NCBI GenBank assembly: GCA_016283295.1 | Contig: JAEEMQ010000010.1 | Coordinates: 1 to 59,332, forward strand | Origin: Alphaproteobacteria bacterium | Lineage (GTDB): Bacteria > Pseudomonadota > Alphaproteobacteria > RF32 > CAG-239 | Reading direction: 5' to 3' | DNA: 59,332 nucleotides | Shown: in pieces, positions 2,557-45,412 of the stretch | Layout: every line of letters begins with the position of its first letter | How positions within the stretch are numbered: the stretch's first letter is position 1 | The notes under the pieces: generated by a model | Databases searched by the model: none | Seen by the model: only the letters and a program-made list of their open reading frames with translations | What the model was told of the DNA's origin: nothing | Translations under genes and position numbers: made by a program

Positions 2557-4041
2557 TTATCTATTTGCCCTGTGCTTTTCAATCAGAGCCACCAATTCTT
2601 CGTCGCCGGTTTCTTTGGCATATTCCAGGGCAATTTGCCAGTTTGAGGTCGCATTGTCGGCATAATCCGTCAGCTCATCAATCAGCGCCAGGTTGGCATA
2701 ATCGGCGGCCAAACCTTCGCAACGGCGGTGGCTTTGTTCGAGGTGCAAAGATTGCTGAAACAGAACTTTGGCGCGTTGCAAATCCTTTTTTTGCAAATAA
2801 ATCAGACCGAGCAGGCTGTAAGCATTGGCCGTGTGGAAACTGTTGGGATGGGCTCGATTGATTTGCAGAATTTCGCGCAGATTTTTTTCGGCCGCGGTGT
2901 TGCTACGCATTTTGTATTGCGCTTCCGCCTCCAGATACAAACATTCGGCCGTGGCGGAAAAATTCTTTTGTTTACGATAGAGCTCACAGGCTTGAGCGGC
3001 ATCTTTTACCGTGAGGCGGTGCTGCTTTTTCTGGAAGTGAATATGGGCCGAAAGCTGCAACGAAAGGGCGGTGCCGTACGGATTTTTCAGGCGCTTTTGC
3101 ATATCAAGAGCCTGTTTGACGTAACCGGCTGCGGCCGCGGTATCGTTTTGTGCCAATTTGAGCAGAGCCAGCTGATTTGAAATATCGGCGTGCAGTTGCG
3201 GCGTAATCGGCAGTTGCAGCGCTTTTTGGTATTCGGCTTCGGCTTCTTCAAAACGATTTTCGAACACCATCAGCATTCCTTTGGCCGTATGGGCTTTGGC
3301 CAAAAAGAGAGGAGCGTTTTGGGTTTGATAAATTTTGAGGGCAGATTCAATCATGGTTTGCGCAATATCATTGACGCAGCTTATACGGTAAATTTCAGCC
3401 AATATCAGATGGCAGGCCGCGGTTTCCATGGCAAATTGCTTTTTTTGAAAAAATTTGAGCGCAGCCGAAGCATTTTGCGAGGCCGAGAGCATATCGCCTT
3501 CGTGCAAATAAGCATAAGCCGCAACCGCCTTAAAATAGGCCCGTGCGGTGCGGTTGTATTTTGCCAGGCGCGGATTTATTTTTTCTACGGACGCAAGAAA
3601 GACGCGCCGGTCATGCACCAGATGCGCCGTCAGCGGGATATATACGCCGAACTCGCGGTCGGTTATTTGCGGAATATGCCCGCGTTTGCTTTGTTTGTAA
3701 GCCTCGTTGATATCGGTATGCGCCAACAACAGTAAAGCCAGCTCCGGATGTTTTTTTTGCAGAAAAGCAACGGCCGGTTCGGTGTTGCCGCCGGTCAGCG
3801 CCCGCAGAGCGTGTTTGGCTTCCGCCGCGGTGCAGAAAAATAAAATGCGGGCGGATTTATTCAAAATATCGGCAGAAAACAGCAGGCTGAAATTGCTCTT
3901 TTGCTGACGTTTCAAAATGCCGATGCGCACGAGATTTTGCAAAAAGCGCAGGCGTATATGCAAACGCCATATAATCGCCGGCAGCAAAAACGCGCAAATA
4001 AGCAGAAAATATACCGTCCATTCAAAATATTTTTCCGACAT
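2557..4041 (-). CDS. Tetratricopeptide repeat protein with N-terminal TM helix
   Basis: 494 aa; repeated TPR-like helices (AYSLLGLIYLQKKDLQRAKVLFQQSLHL; EEAEAEYQKALQL); GAGGG SD. Confidence 0.8.
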   Translation of the reverse strand: MSEKYFEWTVYFLLICAFLLPAIIWRLHIRLRFLQNLVRIGILKRQQKSNFSLLFSADILNKSARILFFCTAAEAKHALRALTGGNTEPAVAFLQKKHPELALLLLAHTDINEAYKQSKRGHIPQITDREFGVYIPLTAHLVHDRRVFLASVEKINPRLAKYNRTARAYFKAVAAYAYLHEGDMLSASQNASAALKFFQKKQFAMETAACHLILAEIYRISCVNDIAQTMIESALKIYQTQNAPLFLAKAHTAKGMLMVFENRFEEAEAEYQKALQLPITPQLHADISNQLALLKLAQNDTAAAAGYVKQALDMQKRLKNPYGTALSLQLSAHIHFQKKQHRLTVKDAAQACELYRKQKNFSATAECLYLEAEAQYKMRSNTAAEKNLREILQINRAHPNSFHTANAYSLLGLIYLQKKDLQRAKVLFQQSLHLEQSHRRCEGLAADYANLALIDELTDYADNATSNWQIALEYAKETGDEELVALIEKHRANR

Positions 4042-36716: not shown

Positions 36717-37118
36717 TCAAAAATTAAAAATCTTACTCAAAGCATAGTCCAGCTCGACATCTCCGTACTTGTCCGTAACCTTAAAATCGTTGCGGTCGAT
36801 AATCAGATATTCGCCCAGTGTGTAATCGTAACAAAGCAAATCAAAATCGTTGTATCCGAGCAAAATGGTGTTTTCCGGCTTTTTCATCTGCTCGTTTTTA
36901 TCAATGATATCCAAATCGTCGTCAACGGTGGCGCCGAAAAGATAAGAACCGTCGAACTTCATCCCGTTATAATGGTGAAGAAAATCGGCATAAGACTTCG
37001 GAATCATGCCCAGTCCCATATTATGCAGAACTTTTTGGGCGATAATCAGCGCCTCGGCTTCCAGCTTTTCGCCGTGAGCAAACTTTTTGCCCTTGATTTC
37101 ATCCAGAAATGTATTCAT
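36717..37118 (-). CDS. SUKH (SMI1/KNR4, YrhA-like) immunity-type protein
   Basis: IPKSYADFLHHYNG...LFG, ILLG...LLCYD...GEYLIIDR; start overlaps the upstream stop. Confidence 0.75.
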   Translation of the reverse strand: MNTFLDEIKGKKFAHGEKLEAEALIIAQKVLHNMGLGMIPKSYADFLHHYNGMKFDGSYLFGATVDDDLDIIDKNEQMKKPENTILLGYNDFDLLCYDYTLGEYLIIDRNDFKVTDKYGDVELDYALSKIFNF

Positions 37119-38683
37119 AGCTCATTTCCTTTATTCTTTTTGGTCAGCTTCAGATTTTTCCCCGCGGCCTTGTTGATGCTCTTTTGAGCTTTGGAATCAG
37201 GCACGATCCAATCGGTGAAAATCTGTAAATCTTCGGCGGAAACGTTGATTTTATCTTGCAACATACCAATCAGGTTGCGGCGCTCGTTGCTCAAATCGCG
37301 CTTAGAATATTCAATGTGGTAGCGGTCAGCAATTTCCGGAATATTGTTAAAGCGCTGTAGTTGCATTTCATAATAGTTAACCACGTTTTGCTTATCTTGC
37401 TTAATGCGTTTTTGCAAACTGCTGTTTTTATCCCATTCGCAACTGATTTCAAAATTAAAGCCGTCAAGCAGCGCCACATTTGAATCATACATATTGATAC
37501 GGGAAAAATACATTTCGTTGTTTTTTGCAACTTCGTCGGTATCGTCAAACCCGTGGAAATAAGCGCGGTGCATTTCGTGCTCAACCAACACCAGGTTGGT
37601 CGGGTAGTTAACTTTGGCCAGATAATCGTCGTCGTTGGCAAATTTTACGGCATTTTTATGATGCACCTCAAAGCACGGCATATCGTCTTTGCTCAGCGGC
37701 ATGCCGTTTTCGTCGCGGGCAACGAGAATATTCTCTTTATCGGCCAAAAACATTCGGTCCATCAGCTCTTCCGGTATTTTATCGCCGACTTTATAGTCTT
37801 CGCTGTAATACGGGGTGTTGCGCAAATCTTTGATAATGCGCGGAGTGAAATTGATTTCCGTCACTACCAGGGTAGCAATATCGCAGCAACCGCTTTGCGC
37901 CATACGTCGACACAGCGAAACAACCTTGCGCTCGTCCAAACCGTTGGCAATCAGCCGATTATACAAGGTTTTGCCTTGTTCGCGCATAAAACTCTTAACA
38001 AACTTCTTTTTATAGCCGGTTTTAAGGAACAATGCTTTCATCGATTCCGGGGTCTTGGCAAATGATTTATGAATAACATCGCAGAAGTCGCTGACCGACA
38101 TTACCTTGAGCGCATCGGGATTAATGCCGTTTCTGTACATATAGCGGCGAACATTCGGGGCAATCGTGCGGAAGCTCTCAAACTGGTTGAAAACGCGCCA
38201 CATCGGCGATTGCGATAAATCATAATCTTTCAATCTGAATTTGCCGCGGTTTTCGTTTTTGCAGAAAAACTTGTAATACGAGCTGAGTTCGTGTTCGCGA
38301 CGGGCATCAATGGAGCCGTAACATTCCATCCGCACCAGCTTTTTTTCGTCATCGGACAGCGGATAATAAATGTTGCCGGCATCATAAAAAGAACCGCACA
38401 TCCAACCGATCATCTCGAGGCAATCGGCGCTTAAATCAAGCAATTTCTCCTGCATTTTGGCCGGAGAAATCGTGACTTTGTTATAGGTAATGTCGTGCAA
38501 CAGGTCAACCAGGGCGATTTGCCGCGGATAGGCCAGATTGGTAAAATTTTCCTGAAAATCGATGGGGTTGCGCAGAGTTTCCCATAAGTCGGCATTATCC
38601 TTGATAAATCTGCCGGTCAGCTCAGAGGCGCTCGGTAGAAAATCAAAATGTTTTTCGGCGTATGTTTTTTTTCTGCGGCTCAT
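37115..38683 (-). CDS. Protein with internal HNH endonuclease motif (putative nuclease toxin)
   Basis: FEVHHKNAVK...VNYPTNLVLVEHEMHRAYFH. Confidence 0.7.
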   Translation of the reverse strand: MSRRKKTYAEKHFDFLPSASELTGRFIKDNADLWETLRNPIDFQENFTNLAYPRQIALVDLLHDITYNKVTISPAKMQEKLLDLSADCLEMIGWMCGSFYDAGNIYYPLSDDEKKLVRMECYGSIDARREHELSSYYKFFCKNENRGKFRLKDYDLSQSPMWRVFNQFESFRTIAPNVRRYMYRNGINPDALKVMSVSDFCDVIHKSFAKTPESMKALFLKTGYKKKFVKSFMREQGKTLYNRLIANGLDERKVVSLCRRMAQSGCCDIATLVVTEINFTPRIIKDLRNTPYYSEDYKVGDKIPEELMDRMFLADKENILVARDENGMPLSKDDMPCFEVHHKNAVKFANDDDYLAKVNYPTNLVLVEHEMHRAYFHGFDDTDEVAKNNEMYFSRINMYDSNVALLDGFNFEISCEWDKNSSLQKRIKQDKQNVVNYYEMQLQRFNNIPEIADRYHIEYSKRDLSNERRNLIGMLQDKINVSAEDLQIFTDWIVPDSKAQKSINKAAGKNLKLTKKNKGNEL

Positions 38684-38811: not shown

Positions 38812-40236
38812 ATGGTTGAATTCGTAATCGGGCGCAATATCGGCGCCAAAGGGGATAAAGTTATTGCGGCGGCAAAACCGGAAGATATCGTTAAGTTACT
38901 TAATGATAATGAAGCGGGGTTGGTTGCCGCCGTCAAAAAGCAAAAACCGGAAGATAAAATCAAAGAATATGATTTGGGCGAATATAAGGTGTTTATTGCC
39001 GTGATTAGGGCCCCTACGTCGGTAGAATGGCAAAAGTTCGGCGGGGCAATGTGGCAAAAAATCAAGAATTGCCGCACGGTTAAGGTGGCTCTGCCGAAGG
39101 TGAGCGCGCAAAAAGTGTATGACTTTGCGCTCGGCGTTGAGCTGACTTCGTATCGCTTTGATAAATATTTTACCAAGAAAAAAGAATCGTTTTATCCGAA
39201 ACTGGAAAAAATCGCTTTTACCAACACCGGTCTTAAAGATATGAGCGGCTATAAAGATGTTGCCGCCGTGGCCAATGCCGTGCGCTATGCCCGCGATTTG
39301 ATTAACGAGCCGGCAAATGCCATGACGCCGGAAATTTTGGCCGGGGATATCAAGCGCTTGGAATATCTCGGTCTGGAAGTGGAAATTTTGGAAGAAACCA
39401 AAATGCGGGAGCTCGGCTTTAATTTGGCGCTGGCGGTGGCGCAAGGTTCGGTTAATCGGCCGCGGATTGCGATTATCAAATGGCGCGGCAACCCGAAAGA
39501 CGATAAATTTGCGGTCGGTCTGGTCGGCAAGGGCGTAACTTTCGACAGCGGCGGTATATCGATTAAACCGGCGGCCAATATGGGCGATATGAAACAGGAT
39601 ATGGCCGGTGCGGCGGCAATGACGGCGGTGATGAAATCGCTGGCTTTGCAAAAAACGCCGAAAAATGTGGTGGCGGTTGTCGGTTTGGTGGAAAATATGC
39701 CGTCGGGAAGCGCTTATCGTCCGGGTGATGTCTTTACTTCTATGTCCGGCCAGACGGTGGAAGTTTTGAATACCGATGCGGAAGGGCGGTTGGTGTTGGC
39801 CGATTGTCTGACCTATATTCAAAAGACGTTCAAGCCGAAATGTATTGCCGATATGGCGACTTTGACCGGAGCGATTATTATTGCGCTGGGCCATACTTTT
39901 GCCGGTATTTTTGCCAATAACGACAAGCTGGCGGAAAAAATTACGGCGGCCGGCAAACAGAGCGGCGAGCGGGTATGGCGGTTGCCGATGGATGCCGAAT
40001 ATGACAAGCAGATGGATTCTACGATTGCCGATATGCGGAATATCGGCGGCGGACGCGTGGCAGGTTCGGCAACGGCGGCGTGTTTCCTGCAACGTTTTGT
40101 TGAGAAAGGGACACCATGGGTGCATATCGATATTGCCGGTATGGACCTGAGCGAAGGTACAAATGTTTTGTATCCGAAAGGAGCCAGCGGCTTCGGGGTG
40201 CGTTTGCTCAACACGTTTATTAATTCGCTGAAATAA
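38812..40236 (+). CDS. pepA: Leucyl aminopeptidase (M17)
   Basis: VGKGVTFDSGGISIKP, MKQDMAGAA, NTDAEGRLVLAD, ATLTGA, HIDIAG. Confidence 0.96.
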   Translation: MVEFVIGRNIGAKGDKVIAAAKPEDIVKLLNDNEAGLVAAVKKQKPEDKIKEYDLGEYKVFIAVIRAPTSVEWQKFGGAMWQKIKNCRTVKVALPKVSAQKVYDFALGVELTSYRFDKYFTKKKESFYPKLEKIAFTNTGLKDMSGYKDVAAVANAVRYARDLINEPANAMTPEILAGDIKRLEYLGLEVEILEETKMRELGFNLALAVAQGSVNRPRIAIIKWRGNPKDDKFAVGLVGKGVTFDSGGISIKPAANMGDMKQDMAGAAAMTAVMKSLALQKTPKNVVAVVGLVENMPSGSAYRPGDVFTSMSGQTVEVLNTDAEGRLVLADCLTYIQKTFKPKCIADMATLTGAIIIALGHTFAGIFANNDKLAEKITAAGKQSGERVWRLPMDAEYDKQMDSTIADMRNIGGGRVAGSATAACFLQRFVEKGTPWVHIDIAGMDLSEGTNVLYPKGASGFGVRLLNTFINSLK

Positions 40237-40271
40237 TAAATCAGCCGCTGCAACGGCGGCCGGAAATATAT

Positions 40272-40312
40272 AAAATCCGCCTGAGGCAAGATGCTTTAAG
40301 CGGATTTTTTTT
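40272..40312 (+). terminator. Intrinsic terminator of pepA
   Basis: AAAATCCGC...GCGGATTTT plus T run. Confidence 0.85.
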
Positions 40313-40317
40313 ATTAA

Positions 40318-40602
40318 TGTCATCCTTCGCACGGCACGGCGCGTCCGTGCGTCCAAGGATCTCATCTTTCAATGCCGTCGGCATTGCTTCCGATTCACAA
40401 AAAATATAGCGCTTCGCAAAGGTCAGATGTCTTGACGCGGTGATGCACCGCACACCGCGAGGCATGACAATAAAATGCCGCCGTGCGACTTTAGCAGTAG
40501 GATTTTTTTGTTTGACTCCGAGCTGTTTTTTATTTAAGGTATGCGTCGGAAAATCTATAATTATAACAGCGAATTATTAATCAAACAAAATATTATTAAA
40601 GT
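40318..40602 (+). repeat. Module copy 1: inverted pair of GTCAT-ended REP-like palindromes + promoter + AT-rich leader
   Basis: TGTCATCC...GGATCT (40318-40362) and AGATGTC...GGCATGACA (40425-40469); TTGACT(40512)-17-TAAGGT(40535); 40364-40563 nearly identical to 41801-42000. Confidence 0.85.
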
Positions 40603-41094
40603 ATGGAACATGTTATTGAATCTCGTGTTATCTTGGGATTGTTGATCCTGATACACTTGTTTGCCGGTTATGCCTCCGGTATTTCTTGGGGACACATCAA
40701 CCGCAAAGTGCTTCACAGTGTCATCATAACGGAGCTGATTGCAGTAACGGCGTATATCATATACGACAACCTGCAGACGCCCCCGTACGATGGCTGGACT
40801 CTCGCCATTATCGGTTATCTCTTGCTGTATGCTCTGATTCTGATGACTTGGTACGGCTACTACATTTATACGGAGCTGGACAGGGATAAGGTTTATGAAA
40901 TGACCATCCGCGACCATATACGTTATATGAACGAGGATTATTTCCGCGGCACGGTAGTGGATGACAAGCGCGAAGTTGAGGTATATCTTCCTTATTCAGA
41001 GGAGCTTAAGCCGAAAGATAAAACCGCTAAAAAGCAAAATGTCAAATATGACAATGTGCTTAGGGGTGTTCACATTCTGGTAAAATTAACTTAA
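40603..41094 (+). CDS. Hypothetical membrane protein
   Basis: Three N-terminal hydrophobic segments, polar C-terminus; no SD. Confidence 0.75.
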   Translation: MEHVIESRVILGLLILIHLFAGYASGISWGHINRKVLHSVIITELIAVTAYIIYDNLQTPPYDGWTLAIIGYLLLYALILMTWYGYYIYTELDRDKVYEMTIRDHIRYMNEDYFRGTVVDDKREVEVYLPYSEELKPKDKTAKKQNVKYDNVLRGVHILVKLT

Positions 41095-41107
41095 AACATA
41101 AACGCGT

Positions 41108-41248
41108 ATGGAAAAAAACAGTAAAGCGCCGCAAGGCAAGAAAGCTTACACAGCTCAAGAAGCTGAAGCCATGGGTTTTTCTATCGAAGAGCCGAAAAGG
41201 TTACGCTCTTTCAAGAGCAGTCCCTATTACAGATGTAGTAACTCTTAA
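41108..41248 (+). CDS. Small hypothetical protein (46 aa), below the ORF-track cutoff
   Basis: MEKNSKAPQGKKAYTAQEAEAMGFSIEEPKRLRSFKSSPYYRCSNS; fills the gap neatly and has the same GCGTATG start context as the next gene. Confidence 0.5.
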   Translation: MEKNSKAPQGKKAYTAQEAEAMGFSIEEPKRLRSFKSSPYYRCSNS

Positions 41249-41260
41249 ATACAAAAGCGT

Positions 41261-41707
41261 ATGAAAAAGTTAGTCTTTGCGTTAATTGCCGCGCTCAGCG
41301 TAGCATTAACCGGTTGTTCCTCCTTTGAAAGCGACCCGATTGAGCCAAACATTATCGGCACGACATTCTTGCAAGAAGAAAAAGGCCTGATTTTTGCGGA
41401 GTTCGACTCTGTGCGCTATGCCCCGACAATCATCTACATCGGCAAAAAGGTCGGTCGAGACGGTATAGAGGCAAAAATCGAGCCGATTGCTGGTATGCAG
41501 GTTACGGCATTTACCAGCAATATGCATCAAAAGCCGGTCTTTTTTGCCGGTCAGGTAACAGCCGATCAGATTGAGAAATACTATCACAGAGACTTTACGG
41601 CTTTGATTATTCTCGCAATCATAATCATCGGTCTTATGCTGATGTGTATTATCATTCCTGCTGTCAACGGCAAACGTACCGCTAAAGTTGCAGATGTTCA
41701 TGATTAA
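41261..41707 (+). CDS. Hypothetical lipoprotein with C-terminal TM helix
   Basis: Lipobox LTGC; hydrophobic ALIILAIIIIGLMLMCIII. Confidence 0.75.
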   Translation: MKKLVFALIAALSVALTGCSSFESDPIEPNIIGTTFLQEEKGLIFAEFDSVRYAPTIIYIGKKVGRDGIEAKIEPIAGMQVTAFTSNMHQKPVFFAGQVTADQIEKYYHRDFTALIILAIIIIGLMLMCIIIPAVNGKRTAKVADVHD

Positions 41708-41708
41708 T

Positions 41709-41749
41709 AAAAACTCCCCCGCCGCTAACCGCCGCGGGGGAGTTTTTTT
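41709..41749 (+). terminator. Intrinsic terminator, cassette copy 1
   Basis: AAAAACTCCCCCGC...GCGGGGGAGTTTTTTT. Confidence 0.9.
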
Positions 41750-41754
41750 ATTAT

Positions 41755-42032
41755 GGTCATACCTCAACCTGCGCTGTGCGTCAGGTTGTCAAGGTATCTA
41801 ATCTTTCAATGCCGTCGGCATTGCTTCCGATTTACAAAAGATATAGCGCTTCGCAAAGGTCAGATGCCTTGACGCGGTGATGCACCGCACACCGCGAGGC
41901 ATGACAATAAAAGGGCGCCGTGCGACTTTAGCGGTAGGATTTTTTTGTTTGACTCCGATCTGTTTTTTATTTAAGGTATGCGCCGGAAAACCTATAATTA
42001 TTCGAAATTATTAACTTTAAATATTATTACTT
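41755..42032 (+). repeat. Module copy 2: REP-like palindrome pair + promoter + leader
   Basis: GGTCATACC...GGTATCT (41755-41799), AGATGCC...GGCATGACA (41862-41906), TTGACT(41949)-17-TAAGGT(41972). Confidence 0.85.
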
Positions 42033-42440
42033 ATGGATTTAAAACTACTGAAAATCATTAGAGATGTGTGTCCGAAAAGTTGCATCGTAAAAAGTCTGTC
42101 AACCAGACGCAAAGGCAATCCGGACCTGGTGATTGTAAAATTTCCCGCCGTCAGGATTATACGGGGTTATACCGTAGATGATTGGGAAATTGAACAAACG
42201 CATGATTTACATCACAGCAAAATCCGTCCGTTGAAACTCCCCGAAGGATGCAGAGTGTTTTATTGCTGCGGAGAGTTTTTTGTGTTTTATTCACCTTTGG
42301 GCGGATTCCTTGAAGATTTCGGAGGGTACATCACATATAAGGTATTCGGTAAAGACGAATATCAACGATATGTCGGTATATGCTACGATATCAACAAACT
42401 TATTTCTTATCTGACCGATACGGAAGATATTGTTTATTGA
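42033..42440 (+). CDS. Hypothetical protein (135 aa)
   Basis: AT-rich ORF between module copy 2 and terminator copy 2. Confidence 0.65.
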   Translation: MDLKLLKIIRDVCPKSCIVKSLSTRRKGNPDLVIVKFPAVRIIRGYTVDDWEIEQTHDLHHSKIRPLKLPEGCRVFYCCGEFFVFYSPLGGFLEDFGGYITYKVFGKDEYQRYVGICYDINKLISYLTDTEDIVY

Positions 42441-42444
42441 ATAA

Positions 42445-42487
42445 AAAACTCCCCCGCCGCCATCGTGCCGCGGGGGAGTTTTGTTTT
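42445..42487. terminator. Intrinsic (probably bidirectional) terminator, cassette copy 2
   Basis: AAAACTCCCCCGC...GCGGGGGAGTTTT, same stem as 41709-41749. Confidence 0.9.
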
Positions 42488-42495
42488 ATAAGTAA

Positions 42496-43002
42496 CTAAA
42501 TGTTACCGAACAAATCAGCTTTCAGCATATCGCCGAGCTCGATGTTGTATTTATCGGCCTGACCGGCATTAATCTCCAACACCGCACGCGGTCTTTTCGG
42601 AGCAACAATCGGAGTAATGTCGTTCGGTTGTGCATTTTTATAAATGTAGAAAACAACGCCGTTTTCATCCAGGAACAGCATATCCAGCGGAATCAGCGTA
42701 TCTTTCATCCAAAATGCGATCTGGGCATCTTTCGGCGCAATATTAACATCAAACAGCAAACCGTAGTTCTCATCAATAGAGGTGCGTCCCATTAAGCCGT
42801 GATAAATCTTTTCCTGTGTATCGGCAACATTGATTTGGAAAGTATTCTTTGTCTCCCCGCCGTCTCTAGCCACAACCGCGGCTTCGGAAACTGCAGGCCA
42901 TTCAAGAGAGGCTTTGTTGGCGGCCTGGTTATTTTCTTCATCGGAACATGCAGACATCAAAACCATTGCTGCCAGCGCTAAAATTCTGTAAAACTTAAAC
43001 AT
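42496..43002 (-). CDS. DUF192-family lipoprotein
   Basis: Lipobox MSAC; GLMGR, FWMKDTLIPLDMLF, VLEINAG; ATG 43002 with AGGAG SD. Confidence 0.88.
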   Translation of the reverse strand: MFKFYRILALAAMVLMSACSDEENNQAANKASLEWPAVSEAAVVARDGGETKNTFQINVADTQEKIYHGLMGRTSIDENYGLLFDVNIAPKDAQIAFWMKDTLIPLDMLFLDENGVVFYIYKNAQPNDITPIVAPKRPRAVLEINAGQADKYNIELGDMLKADLFGNI

Positions 43003-43187
43003 AATCACTCCTATTTTTATCGTTTGACGTGTGTATGGTACAGCACATTTTCAATAAGTTCAAACATATTTTAATAATTATTTACAAAAAAAACGTTAAT
43101 TTTTTTGGGGAAAAACCGCTTTTCCGTTTGTGTTAATATGTAATATCTCATAGATTATAAAGCAAAGAATTTTAAAGGAGATATGAT

Positions 43188-43658
43188 ATGAAAAAGTTGT
43201 TATTTGTCGGTATGTCCCTGATTTTAAGCGGTTGCGCCGGGTTATTCAACGGTCCGGATTGCCGTTTATCCGAAGATGAATACGTTTCCAAAATTGCCGA
43301 GGCAAGATTGGAGGGAATTGTACATTTTGACGACGGTAAGGCCGATTTGAAGGAAAAAGATTTGCAAATCATTCGCGATGTTGCCGCCAAAACAACCGAC
43401 GATGCGATATTGGTCGTTTACGGACACGCTTCGCATCGCACCAGAACCAAGGACCCGATACAGCGGATTTTGGTAAATATCGATATTTCCAACGAGCGAG
43501 CGGTTAATACGGCAAAAGCTTTGGCCGCGGCCGGAGTTTCTGCCGATAAAATAAGCACTATCGCCATGTTTGACAGCCGTCCGGTTAAAAAGGAAGTTAC
43601 CAGAGCCGATGAGGCCGCCAACCGTCGTGCGGAAATCTATTTGTATCGGCTTAAGTAA
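43188..43658 (+). CDS. OmpA-family peptidoglycan-binding lipoprotein
   Basis: Lipobox LSGC; VHFDDGKADL, VYGHAS, ISNERA, ANRRAEI. Confidence 0.88.
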   Translation: MKKLLFVGMSLILSGCAGLFNGPDCRLSEDEYVSKIAEARLEGIVHFDDGKADLKEKDLQIIRDVAAKTTDDAILVVYGHASHRTRTKDPIQRILVNIDISNERAVNTAKALAAAGVSADKISTIAMFDSRPVKKEVTRADEAANRRAEIYLYRLK

Positions 43659-45412
43659 TGCAAGACGATATTTCTTTGGGCGGAAATATATGGAACGAGC
43701 CGGAAACGGACGATAAACTTTGTCATCATATATCGGAAGTTTGCGGGGTTCCGCTTTCTATTGCGCGGATTTTGTGTTTGCGCGGTATTGCCGCCGAAGA
43801 AGCCGATAGTTTTTTGCACCCGAAAATTCAGAAACTGATGCCGGAGCCGACGGTATTAAAAGATATGCAAAAAGCATCCGAGCGCATTGCCGCGGCGGTG
43901 GAAAAGCACGAGCAGATAGCGATAATCGGCGATTATGACGTTGACGGTGCCACCTCAACTTCGATTTTAACCCGTTTCTTCCGCCAGGTGGGGATTGAGC
44001 CGCTTATCCATATTCCGAGCCGGGAAGAAGGCTACGGGCCGAGCGATGTCGCTTTTAAGGAATTTGCCGACGGTAAGGCAAGTTTGGTTATTACCATAGA
44101 TTGCGGTACCACGGCGTTTGAGGTGTTAAATCGGGCGGCCGAAAAGTTTGATATTATCGTTATCGATCATCACGAGGCTGAGCCGATTTTGCCGAAGGTG
44201 TATGCGGTGGTTAACCCGAAACGGCTGGATGAGGATAATCCGTATACCTATTTGCAATATATGTCGGCGGTGGGAGTCGGTTTTATGGTGTTGGTGGCGG
44301 TGAACAGGCTGTTGCGGCAACGCGGCTTTTATCAAAATCGTCCGGAGCCGGATTTGCTGCAACTGCTGGATTTGGTGGCGCTCGGCACGGTGTGCGACGT
44401 AGTGCCGCTGCTCGGTCTCAACCGGGCTTATGTGCGCCAGGGCTTAAAGGTTATGCATAAGCTGCAAAATGTCGGATTGCGGCAGCTGATGAAGGTTTTG
44501 AATTTGCAGGAAGCGCCGACGGCGTATCATTTGGGCTTTGCCATCGGACCGCGAATCAATGCCTGCGGTCGGGTGGGCGATGCGCGGCTCGGCAGCCGGT
44601 TATTGTGTTCGGAAAGCGAAGAAGAAGCGCAAATGTTGGCCGAACAATTCAACCAGTTTAATTTTGAGCGCAAAGAAATCGAGAATTTTGTACTGCTTGA
44701 TGCAATTGAGCAGATTGAAGGCACGCCGCAGGAATATCCGATGGTGTTTGTTTACGGTCATGACTGGCATCAGGGAGTTATCGGCATTGTGGCCGGAAAG
44801 TTGCGCGAACGTTACAATGTGCCGGCATTCGTAATGTCGGTGGAACCGGACGAGGTAAAAGGTTCGGCACGTTCTACCGAGGGAATTGATTTGGGTGCGT
44901 TGATTCTTTCGGCCAAAGAAAAAGGCGTTATCAGCGGCGGCGGTGGACATATTATGGCGGCCGGTTTTTCGCTGAGTGAAGAACAGATACCCGAATTCAG
45001 GAAATTTGCCGGCGAATATATTTTGTCGCGGCTCGGTAACGAAAAAATCGTGCCGGTGCTTAATATCGACGCGGTGGTAAGCCCGAGCGCGATTAACGAA
45101 CAATTTGCCGAGGATTTGCAGCTGCTCGAGCCTTACGGCACCGGAAATCCCGAACCGCAGATTATGTTGCGGAACGTGCGTTTCGGTTGGGCGCAGATTG
45201 TAGGCAGCGGTCATGTTAAATGTACTTTGCTGTCGGCCGCGGGCGATAAAATCCCGGCGATTGCTTTTCGCGCCGCCGATAATGATATCGGTCAGGCAAT
45301 ATTGCAAAATAACGGCGAAATGTTTGATGTGGCGGGATATGTGCGTTGCGACAGCTGGCAGGGGCGCAAACGCGTGCAAATGTTAATCAACGATATAAAG
45401 AGGAAGTCATGA
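43658..45412 (+). CDS. recJ: ssDNA exonuclease RecJ
   Basis: GDYDVDGATS, TIDCG, IDHH, LGTVCDVVPL, GPRINACGR, KGSARS, GGGHIMAAG. Confidence 0.96.
   Translation: MQDDISLGGNIWNEPETDDKLCHHISEVCGVPLSIARILCLRGIAAEEADSFLHPKIQKLMPEPTVLKDMQKASERIAAAVEKHEQIAIIGDYDVDGATSTSILTRFFRQVGIEPLIHIPSREEGYGPSDVAFKEFADGKASLVITIDCGTTAFEVLNRAAEKFDIIVIDHHEAEPILPKVYAVVNPKRLDEDNPYTYLQYMSAVGVGFMVLVAVNRLLRQRGFYQNRPEPDLLQLLDLVALGTVCDVVPLLGLNRAYVRQGLKVMHKLQNVGLRQLMKVLNLQEAPTAYHLGFAIGPRINACGRVGDARLGSRLLCSESEEEAQMLAEQFNQFNFERKEIENFVLLDAIEQIEGTPQEYPMVFVYGHDWHQGVIGIVAGKLRERYNVPAFVMSVEPDEVKGSARSTEGIDLGALILSAKEKGVISGGGGHIMAAGFSLSEEQIPEFRKFAGEYILSRLGNEKIVPVLNIDAVVSPSAINEQFAEDLQLLEPYGTGNPEPQIMLRNVRFGWAQIVGSGHVKCTLLSAAGDKIPAIAFRAADNDIGQAILQNNGEMFDVAGYVRCDSWQGRKRVQMLINDIKRKS

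Follow-up and report, generated by a model that had tools for sequence, protein, structure and literature searches.

Positions 1–59,332 of contig JAEEMQ010000010.1, a stretch of 59,332 nucleotides (nt) hereafter called the window, belong to assembly GCA_016283295.1, the genome of an uncultured rumen alphaproteobacterium (here G000; a 1.65-Mb assembly in 52 contigs, 95% complete). Between pepA and a DUF192 gene it carries two tandem cassettes, A and B, in which small genes of unrelated sequence lie between near-identical modules with a putative promoter on the left and similar putative terminators on the right. Related signals, here called PL (promoter-leader) and TERM (terminator), appear to frame variable small genes at many other sites in the genus.

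Organization of the two cassettes

The conserved left neighbor, pepA, codes for an M17 leucyl aminopeptidase (38812–40236, forward strand; PF00883, E 1.5e-124) and has counterparts in the related genomes G017 (97% identity), G066 (94%) and G035 (83%). Its own predicted intrinsic terminator lies at 40272–40312 (forward strand; hairpin of −18.7 kcal/mol, z −4.7), and the cassette sequence starts at the T-run. Cassette A opens with a miniature inverted-repeat transposable element (MITE copy A, 40319–40468, with two terminal hairpins, a small central one and a left arm designated type-1), followed by a linker (40469–40511) whose 3' end is GGATTTTTTT and by PL-A (40512–40602; nhmmer profile E 1.6e-21). 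The ATG at 40603 begins the first of three orphan genes: A1 (family F07; 40603–41094), coding for 163 amino acids (aa) with about three transmembrane (TM) segments, A2 (F08; 41108–41248; 46 aa), with the start context GCGT-ATG-GAA, and A3 (F01; 41261–41707), coding for a 148-aa predicted lipoprotein whose middle is variable and whose C-terminal end has a TM segment. TERM-A (41709–41749) consists of an A-tract, a G+C hairpin and a T-tract, and is predicted to be a two-way intrinsic terminator (−29.2 kcal/mol, z −7.5; TERM profile E 7e-13).

Cassette B follows the same plan, with MITE copy B (41756–41905), whose type-2 left arm is the arm found after pepA in G017 and G035, a second linker (41906–41948), PL-B (41949–42032; nhmmer E 1.7e-16), with a leader 94% identical to that of its G017 ortholog, and a single gene, B (F04; 42033–42440), which codes for a 135-aa soluble orphan with a predicted DHHA1/C-Ala-like alpha/beta fold. 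Apart from the two-way terminators, all of these features are on the forward strand. TERM-B (42444–42487; −27.6 kcal/mol, z −5.8) is common to the convergent B and DUF192 genes, the latter being the conserved right neighbor (42496–43008, reverse strand; PF02643, E 9e-28) and present in 48 of 50 genomes of the genus. None of 200 shuffles folds as well as TERM-A or TERM-B.

The order of pepA terminator, module, three open reading frames (ORFs), terminator, module, one ORF and terminator had been proposed in an original prediction made from the letters of the window, and it stands, with the DUF192 gene coming next on the minus strand. The near-identity of the modules at an offset of 1437 nt also holds, as a 263-nt direct repeat (40302–40564 and 41739–42001) with 89% identity. 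It is unevenly distributed, with matches at 14/16 positions in the T-run flank, 30/46 (65%) in the left arm of the MITE, 109/113 (96.5%) in the rest of the MITE, 32/35 (91%) in the linker, 51/54 (94%) in the promoter up to TATAATTAT, and 24/38 (63%) in the leader up to the ATG. Similarity had been said to persist through the leader to the start codon; with matches at only the 24/38 positions just given it is partial there, and is due to the motifs named, which are conserved across the genus. The terminators are shared and begin right after the stop codons as described (41709–41754 and 42444–42489 are 72–87% alike and start 1–4 nt past the stops), and no integrase or transposase was found among the 23 ORFs scanned between 27.8 and 55.5 kb.

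Regulatory stretches in tandem at 89% identity, with similar terminators, are also what a plain duplication of one unit would leave if its coding parts had diverged beyond recognition. This is very improbable here. Dissimilarity of the enclosed ORFs had been noted by inspection and is borne out by hhalign, which gives a probability of 0.1% for the B family against each of the A1, A2 and A3 families and 0.1–0.6% over the eight cassette families with which it was compared; by these profile comparisons the A and B cargoes, including the genes at 40603 and 42033 for which paralogy had been raised, are unrelated and not diverged paralogs. The architectures differ as well (three genes with TM segments and a lipobox against one soluble gene), orthologs of every cargo family occur at other places and are under purifying selection, and G017 and G066 carry B or a relative, B', alone at this site, with A-type operons at other sites.

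The module is a composite

In a search of G000 with the 301-nt module, positions 11–174 match ten further loci that lack the rest of the module, and positions 202–299 match two other loci, on contigs C40 and C51, both without the MITE part. Because each part occurs alone elsewhere, the module is made of separable parts: a hairpin-ended MITE of about 150 nt (12 loci in G000), a linker of about 40 nt and a PL of about 90 nt (four loci in G000). The suggested search for the module in this genome and its relatives has therefore had a split outcome: PL and TERM recur at many loci throughout the genus, but the full composite occurs in G000 only as the two window copies.

The MITE is small, non-coding and multi-copy, with terminal inverted repeats (150 nt, GTCAT...ATGAC). 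As DNA it folds with −36.6 kcal/mol (z −4.0) and its terminal hairpins are in mirror orientation; in the alignment of copies the hairpin stems differ by paired, compensatory changes, and the flanks of four G000 copies are alike to the left and to the right. REPIN-type elements also have two short, inverted palindromes, and the original prediction had labeled the element a pair of repetitive extragenic palindromes (REP). That label is wrong for this 150-nt MITE with two terminal hairpins, because G000, at 95% completeness, has neither a Y1/RAYT gene (PF01797, no matches, where the control search was positive in 6 of 14 genomes) nor an IS110-type transposase gene (PF01548); the REP-associated nuclease or recombinase that was to be looked for elsewhere in the genome did not turn up in the PF01797 search. 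Short reverse-strand ORFs starting MPRGVRCITASRHLTFAKRYIFC (40241–40465 and 41798–41902) recur with every MITE and are a by-product of the repeat, not genes.

The MITE seems to land at hairpins. It lies between a terminator and a PL at no fewer than seven places beyond the window, such placements including loci L050, L044, L071, L051, L066 and L055. Linker A looks, by eye, like the decayed right half of a cassette terminator; the TERM profile made no call there, and in G017 the linker position reads as a clear right half of TERM. In G066 the pepA T-run runs straight into a PL with no MITE between, and most PL cassettes have no MITE. The additional identity of the two window modules is best explained by the MITE together with local duplication or gene conversion, and the near-identity over about 200 bp, most of which has this origin, is not the cassette signal itself.

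Two further observations concern the MITE. At L071 (5112–6123) its left part abuts an IS110-family transposase gene (PF01548 and PF02371), which could be the parent element. Two genomes have a nested insertion of about 150 nt inside the MITE (L050, at about 3640–3800, and G004), and the inserted sequence is a repeat, similar in both.

PL and TERM across the genus

PL-A contains the hexamers TTGACT (40512–40517) and TAAGGT (40535–40540) with a 17-nt spacer, and an overlapping pair, TTTAAG and TATAAT (40556–40561), also spaced by 17 nt; the leader that follows up to the ATG is AU-rich and lacks a Shine-Dalgarno (SD) site. We infer that PL comprises two overlapping sigma-70-type promoters. The nhmmer profile gives 53 copies in 40 fetched loci and G000, among which the best-kept positions, judged by eye, are TTGAC, followed by the T, A and final T of the −10 box after the 17-nt spacer; the three middle letters of this first −10 box vary freely. 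Near-invariant in PL is TATAATTAT, 17 nt past the TTTA-type −35 box. The window leaders are less structured than their shuffles (z +1.3 and +1.5, the latter for PL-A). Readings of the leader as a CtrA box or an IHF site do not fit (by eye only), and an Rfam search of 39500–43500 (E<=1) returned three sub-threshold matches to the terminator hairpins, two of NsiR1 (27.2 and 22.7 bits against a gathering score of 39) and one of isrK (21 bits against 50), which we take to be chance.

By blastn, PL is found in 27 of the 50 genomes of the genus and in 18 of the 35 high-quality ones, at 1–7 places each. The TERM profile finds about 50 sites (99 hits when both strands of the palindrome are counted), those in G000 being only at three cassettes; at the C40 locus a PL that is 81% identical to PL-A over 97 nt is followed by a gene and then by the third G000 copy of the terminator family. 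A strict 29-position pattern of the PL core occurs in 28 stretches among 185,579 species, each represented by one genome, and all 28 are from metagenome-assembled genomes (MAGs) of ruminant-gut Alphaproteobacteria by record title; metagenome contigs have 39 stretches with the pattern, in arrays of as many as three, and 2.9 million viral contigs have none. At a minimum of nine places, and at three more in metagenome contigs, the T-run of TERM directly precedes the −35 box, so that TERM and the PL that it abuts would form a terminator-plus-promoter unit. By these matches PL and TERM constitute a genus-wide family of putative signals framing 1–5 small genes between housekeeping genes.

Nine other small genes of G000 have a PL-like AU-rich leader and GC(G/T)T before the ATG, and were missed by the profile (C20:29149, 31026 and 31374; C23:65211 and 106715; C26:27812; C34:12572; C48:16596; C51:8222). 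Given these, the cassette class may be larger than counted.

Translation starts of the cassette genes

Of 123 cassette starts, 3 have an SD-like core at −18 to −4, compared with 521 of 971 crude G000 ORFs of at least 200 aa. GC(G/T)T stands directly before the ATG at 55 of the 123 starts and at 8 of the same 971 ORFs, and the second codon is GAA or AAA at 70 cassette starts. This SD-less context applies to the internal genes of a unit as well as to the first, and its uniformity, in a host whose other genes often have an SD site, poses a separate question about translation initiation.

Cargo genes

Cargo was collected as same-strand ORFs of 35 aa or more with an ATG start behind the 53 PLs, giving 127 ORFs in 23 families and 18 singletons. 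The units hold 1–5 genes in changing combinations and loosely kept order, for example F07-F08-F01 in the window, and F07-F06-F02-F08-F01, F07-F19-F08-F01, F11-F12-F08-F01 and F02-F01-F09 elsewhere; in a metagenome contig F01 is followed by a B-family gene. No cargo representative has a match above cut-off in Pfam, PHROGs, PADLOC or NCBIfam. TM-like segments are present in 77 of the 127 ORFs and a lipobox in 13 of 14 members of the A3 family (F01), whose lipoproteins keep the signal peptide, lipobox and C-terminal TM segment around a middle of which there are two versions, making the gene internally mosaic.

The cassette genes are real and under purifying selection. Ratios of nonsynonymous to synonymous substitution (dN/dS) are 0.22 for A1 and 0.17 for A2 (five family members each), 0.30 for A3 (14 members) and 0.34 for B (eight members in the loci), and range from 0.17 to 0.34 in eight cassette-gene pairs, versus 0.05–0.09 for pepA and DUF192.

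A search of 1.84 billion proteins gives 52 representatives of the B family, and a word-index search with B returned only four close relatives. Its structure as predicted by AlphaFold2 (AF2; predicted local distance difference test, pLDDT, 85.8) resembles DHHA1/C-Ala domains with Z scores of 8.2–6, which is in the middling range; Foldseek against PDB gave nothing at E<=0.001, the family profile against PDB sequences had a best E of 0.7, and the modeled likeness is taken as one of fold only, not of function. The recJ gene (43658–45412), which encodes a DHHA1 domain, is 1.2 kb from B; a sequence relation between the two was considered and rejected (hhalign probability 0.13%), and the proximity is probably coincidence. 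Among fused relatives of B (P0010, P0051 and P0047) there is no informative domain except DUF6043 in one, A1 matches unnamed clusters in the ESM Atlas with a best score of 0.86, and viral relatives turned up for neither F04 nor F02. The G000 member of family F03 (C40:30095–30817, locus L008) is 241 aa long, compared with about 400 aa elsewhere, and a TERM lies about 30 nt past its early stop.

Variable cargo at fixed sites

A comparison of the cargo between pepA and DUF192 among relatives had been suggested as a check; it rests on four genomes, because pepA adjoins DUF192 in just 3 of 22 further loci of the genus that were compared, and it reveals four states in the four syntenic genomes. G066 has the pepA terminator, a PL, the B' gene (30% identical to B) and a TERM, with no MITE. 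G017 has a MITE with a nested insert, a second small repeat, a PL, B (84% aa identity) and a TERM, with no cassette A. G035 has a MITE with a type-2 left arm, another promoter, a gene for a 314-aa TM protein and a TERM, and G000 has cassette A added upstream of the type-2 MITE. The resulting 1437-nt indel between close genomes is bounded by the T-run/MITE and by TERM.

A second site, downstream of a PreA-like gene, was compared in 23 genomes. G000, G017 and G004 contain three different cassette sets; G066 has a solo TERM (L128, 314–361), which may be what is left of a cassette since lost, the TERM match in G063 is weak (E 1e-3), and the other 18 are without these signals. An empty site with exact insertion borders was sought in the same 23 genomes, and the borders could not be defined because downstream synteny differs. 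Elsewhere, cassettes are found between housekeeping genes such as those for LepA, SodC, GltX, GyrA, FtsY, ThrRS, pyruvate kinase, ProRS and trigger factor, further neighbors being RmuC, RpoD, HflX, Hsp33, YchF, InfC and RNase E, and the units lie just past the terminators of these genes.

Flanking ORFs at 38 other loci were scanned for recombinase and transposase domains. The scan covered 124 of 134 ORFs, the remaining ten, from L050 and L074, matching by their starts genes of the window, which were scanned separately. Only 3 of the 124 have such a domain (rve_3, IS110 and Resolvase), each at a different locus, and none of these recombinase-type ORFs is a tyrosine recombinase.

Gene flow and shared signals

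Identities of cassette genes depart strongly from those of pepA. F02 is 96.9% identical in nucleotide sequence between G017 and G035 (dS 0.094), whereas pepA of the same pair is 78% identical (dS 1.48). A1 of G000 is 83.8% identical to that of the distant G015 versus 70.5% to that of G066, although pepA is 88% identical to that of G066, and G066 and G006 share A1 at 94.5%; B is 74% identical in G065, where pepA is 69% identical and the gene is at another locus, but 30% identical in G066, where pepA is 94% identical. Near-identical F02 copies occur in three different gene combinations. As judged from these contrasts, there has been recent gene flow between species, in which cassette genes moved singly or in small groups.

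The halves of PL behave differently. The promoter halves of PL-A and PL-B are 94% identical, that of PL-B is 89% identical to its G017 ortholog, and that of PL-A is 75–83% identical to other A1-type PLs; leaders follow the cargo, with 94% identity between the B leaders of G000 and G017 and 95% between the A1 (F07) leaders of G066 and G006. Among 45 parsable PLs, promoter identity is 81.5 within the same genome, 79.4 with the same cargo and 77.1 at baseline, and leader identity is 78.0 with the same cargo, 73.6 within the same genome and 70.4 at baseline, a trend that is only descriptive because the genomes are related.

These data bear on whether PL and TERM reflect shared regulation only, with a single regulator, sigma factor or translation mode selecting them in an envelope-gene regulon, the genes spreading by ordinary transfer and the flanks having no role in recombination. 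Consistent with this, the best-kept PL positions (by eye) are where functional −35 and −10 boxes would have them, the palindrome TATAATTATA may serve as an operator, internal genes not preceded by a PL have the special start context too, further G000 genes missed by the profile have PL-like leaders, and the G066 flanks at the pepA site are hardly better kept than intergenic DNA. We nonetheless consider it fairly unlikely: the promoter half tracks the genome and the leader the cargo, near-identical genes (95–97% in nucleotide sequence) occur in three gene combinations in three species, the T-run/MITE and TERM are where indels between close genomes stop, and a solo TERM is left at the PreA site of G066. 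These four observations call for recombination at or near the signals, and selection may act too.

Origin of the window arrangement

Compared with G017, the extra DNA of the window is a 1437-nt unit that extends from the left end of MITE copy A to the T-run after TERM-A, and both MITE copies are preceded by the same T-run and ATTA. Contigs assembled from public sequencing runs (X1–X4) confirm the junction from the pepA terminator to MITE copy A (X1 record 2), that from MITE copy A through PL-A to A1 (X1 record 3, with a variant linker), and that from MITE copy B through PL-B to B (X1 record 6 and X2 record 14). At TERM-A the contigs differ from the window: past 41760 an X1 contig has 25 letters identical to the copy-A arm, and an X3 contig joins 41742 to 40306, going back 1437 nt, into a MITE whose alignment with copy A has 11 differing letters and 6 gaps. 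In every contig version TERM-A is succeeded by a MITE. The X1 and X3 evidence consists of contigs at depth 3–5, not of reads, and window parts outside the contig cover in X2–X4 (such as B in X3 and X4) carry no weight. The joints at TERM-A may stem from variation between strains, from conversion among MITE copies, from a tandem or circular form of the unit, or from a MAG contig that is a mosaic.

That the MAG contig was threaded through the repeated MITE, and that the cassettes are not truly adjacent, is highly unlikely. The junction from TERM-A to the type-2 arm appears in no listed public contig, two contigs show the type-1 arm instead, and repeats break many assemblies of the genus; on the other side, the three other window junctions are confirmed by independent contigs, a MITE follows TERM-A in every version, with about one difference per 25 positions the two copies are distinct enough for assemblers to separate, and cassettes in tandem are frequent both in other genomes and in contigs from metagenomes.

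An unlikely but more substantial alternative is active capture driven by an element, in which the 1437-nt unit, or units bounded by the MITE or TERM, moved as circles or through a trans-acting transposase or recombinase (such as the MITE's IS110-type parent) that targets hairpins such as terminators. The X3 joint and the 25-letter copy-A run in X1 are what a circle or a tandem unit would give, the non-resident left arm of the new copy is easier to reconcile with insertion at the MITE end than with a crossover within it, and this alternative would also fit the MITEs between terminator and PL at seven or more further places and the abutting IS110-family gene at L071. Against it, G000 has neither IS110 (PF01548) nor Y1 (PF01797) at 95% completeness, the recombinase-type genes among the 124 flanking ORFs are three of three different kinds, most PL cassettes have no MITE, and the joints come from contigs at depth 3–5; the MITE of the X3 joint, with its 11 letters and 6 gaps of difference from copy A, is another copy or strain and not a circle of the window unit.

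Relationship to known systems

The closest known system is that of the promoter-early stem-loops (PeSLs), the mobile regulatory cassettes of T4-type phages (PMC2839356; PMC4122927). In the first account, a PeSL comprises a strong sigma-70-like promoter, an AT-rich tract upstream of the −35 box and a terminator stem-loop, stands before orphan genes in variable regions, and carries an SD site at its 3' end; recombination between motifs, yielding mini-circles, is the shuffling mechanism proposed there (PMC2839356). The likeness lies in the composite of promoter and terminator stem-loop with an AT-rich tract upstream of the −35 box (the T-run of TERM abuts it at a minimum of 12 places), in the position before orphan genes in variable parts, and in the insertions, deletions and replacements between close relatives that end at the motifs. 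Unlike PeSLs, the cassettes are dispersed among the housekeeping genes of a cellular chromosome throughout the genus, not in phage hyperplastic regions, with no viral contigs among the strict matches; their starts are SD-like in only 3 of 123 cases where a PeSL ends in an SD site, and the terminator is upstream of the −35 box and not inside the promoter. The units here, known from sequence, are often multi-gene and often have a MITE, and a possible counterpart of the mini-circles is one X3 joint and one loose X1 end, both in contigs.

Putative mobile promoters (PMPs) are defined by identity of at least 80% over at least 50 nt upstream of non-homologous genes in a genome and by being shared between taxa, and how they move is described there as unknown (PMC3575422). 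PL-A and PL-B, with 94% identity over 54 nt of promoter and unrelated cargo, fall within this definition. PL differs in having a conserved leader and start context, a matching terminator, and a specific set of orphan families for which gene flow can be demonstrated. Correia elements, ERIC and REPIN/RAYT are named in the same source (PMC3575422). The first 150 nt of the module resemble such promoter-bearing small repeats in being a multi-copy, hairpin-ended, non-coding MITE next to promoters. The promoter here is however outside the MITE, because PL occurs without it, there is no RAYT, and the ends are GTCAT...ATGAC. The rAID-1 orphan-immunity arrays of Bacteroidales form a single cluster with a conserved XerD-family recombinase and recognizable immunity families (10.1101/471110). 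Arrays of small diverse genes in a gut bacterial clade, repeated intergenic sequences and signs of acquisition are common to both, but the cassettes here have no XerD-family recombinase, no single cluster and no match to an immunity or defense family.

Integron arrays are similar in being tandem units of unrelated genes that each end in a hairpin-forming repeat. They differ in that the window contains no IntI tyrosine recombinase with attI, the cassettes have their own putative promoter, where those of integrons are promoterless and end in attC, and are dispersed and not in one array, and the 3' hairpin, with its perfect G+C stem and U-run as in a terminator, has no GTTRRRY core by eye. Phage morons are autonomous promoter-gene-terminator units in prophages. 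Like them, the cassettes are self-contained units between unrelated genes whose cargo is often small membrane proteins or lipoproteins; unlike them, they have no prophage context or phage gene families, and their signals are one conserved family, not ad hoc. A literature search found no description of such a system in a bacterial chromosome, which is not proof of absence.

Interpretation of the cassettes

Starting from the anatomy, the shared flanks, the unrelated and variable cargo, the purifying selection and the recent gene flow between species, we interpret the cassettes as regulatory units of a PeSL-like or moron-like type that reside in the chromosome and are shuffled for the most part through recombination at the conserved flanks, and put the probability of this at about 0.62. 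A unit would consist of a PL (a near-consensus −35 box, two overlapping −10 boxes and an AU-rich leader), 1–5 small orphan genes mostly coding for membrane proteins or lipoproteins, and a TERM. PL is predicted to drive strong, SD-independent expression, the leader context GC(G/T)T-ATG-(G/A)AA taking the place of an SD site, and TERM would insulate neighboring genes. Cargo would be gained, lost, swapped and reshuffled chiefly through homologous or microhomology recombination at PL, at TERM and at short conserved gene junctions, carried out by host functions with no dedicated recombinase. In the window, a MITE of the kind that seems to land at hairpins lies between terminator and PL, and the 1437-nt unit (MITE, linker, promoter and so on through A1–A3 and TERM) would have been added upstream of an older B cassette; the two MITE-promoter stretches would afterwards have been duplicated or homogenized locally, giving identity beyond the family consensus.

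Several points weigh against this interpretation. No RNA run is among the public runs listed for this stretch, and promoter and terminator activity are read from the sequence. Neither PL promoter came up in a simple sigma-70 consensus scan, because in each pair one hexamer agrees with the consensus at only 3/6 positions; a terminator rule missed both TERM-A and TERM-B. At the pepA site of G066 compared with G000, PL is 70%, TERM 64% and cargo 56% identical, so the flanks are not sharply better kept, and the same-genome and same-cargo trends among the 45 PLs are slight, in genomes that are related to one another. Had a circle entered by a single crossover inside the MITE-PL homology, the left copy should have the resident type-2 arm; the reverse is observed. 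The junction from TERM-A to the type-2 arm is the only one in the window that no listed public contig confirms, all genomes are MAGs, and many cassettes are at contig ends. Homologous recombination at PL and TERM also cannot explain the first arrival of a cassette at a new housekeeping site.

The original prediction had ended in a system for gene capture or exchange using conserved regulatory flanks. The exchange part is partly supported, by the same flanks around unrelated cargo, the variable site, the arrays across the genus and the movement between species. A dedicated capture system is not shown, and an integron-like capture machine is not supported, given the lack of a recombinase in the window, the 3/124 flanking ORFs elsewhere, each of a different kind, and the lack of RAYT. 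A broader version is tentative: the cassettes may be the cellular counterpart of the phage PeSL, a pool of orphan envelope genes exchanged throughout the genus as plug-in units, whose flanks serve at once as expression signals, as an SD-independent start and as recombination handles for inserting units past housekeeping terminators, swapping and reshuffling them, the handles possibly acting through small circles or with hairpin-seeking help from the MITE or an IS110-type element.

PeSL-type cassettes have been described for phages, and bacterial putative mobile promoters have been catalogued without a mechanism or a defined cargo. New here is that one promoter-leader-terminator set appears to frame no fewer than 23 orphan families throughout an uncultured genus of rumen and gut Alphaproteobacteria, with measurable gene flow between species and no recombinase. 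If the flanks are recombination handles, they would give bacteria with small genomes and no obvious mobile elements a route to exchange surface and envelope genes, and PL and TERM would be a tractable sequence tag for this flexible gene pool in metagenomes.

Neighboring genes

The genes around the cassettes between 27.8 and 55.5 kb include those for HflX, MurG, Sir2, Sua5, RecJ, DUF502, PagP, KdsA-type, RecO, ParC-type, HolA and LeuS proteins. On the other side of pepA, a reverse-strand gene (37115–38683) codes for a 522-aa protein that has no Pfam match even at E 10; it has an H..H..N..H pattern in its C-terminal part, noted by eye, and is kept beside pepA in G017 and G066.

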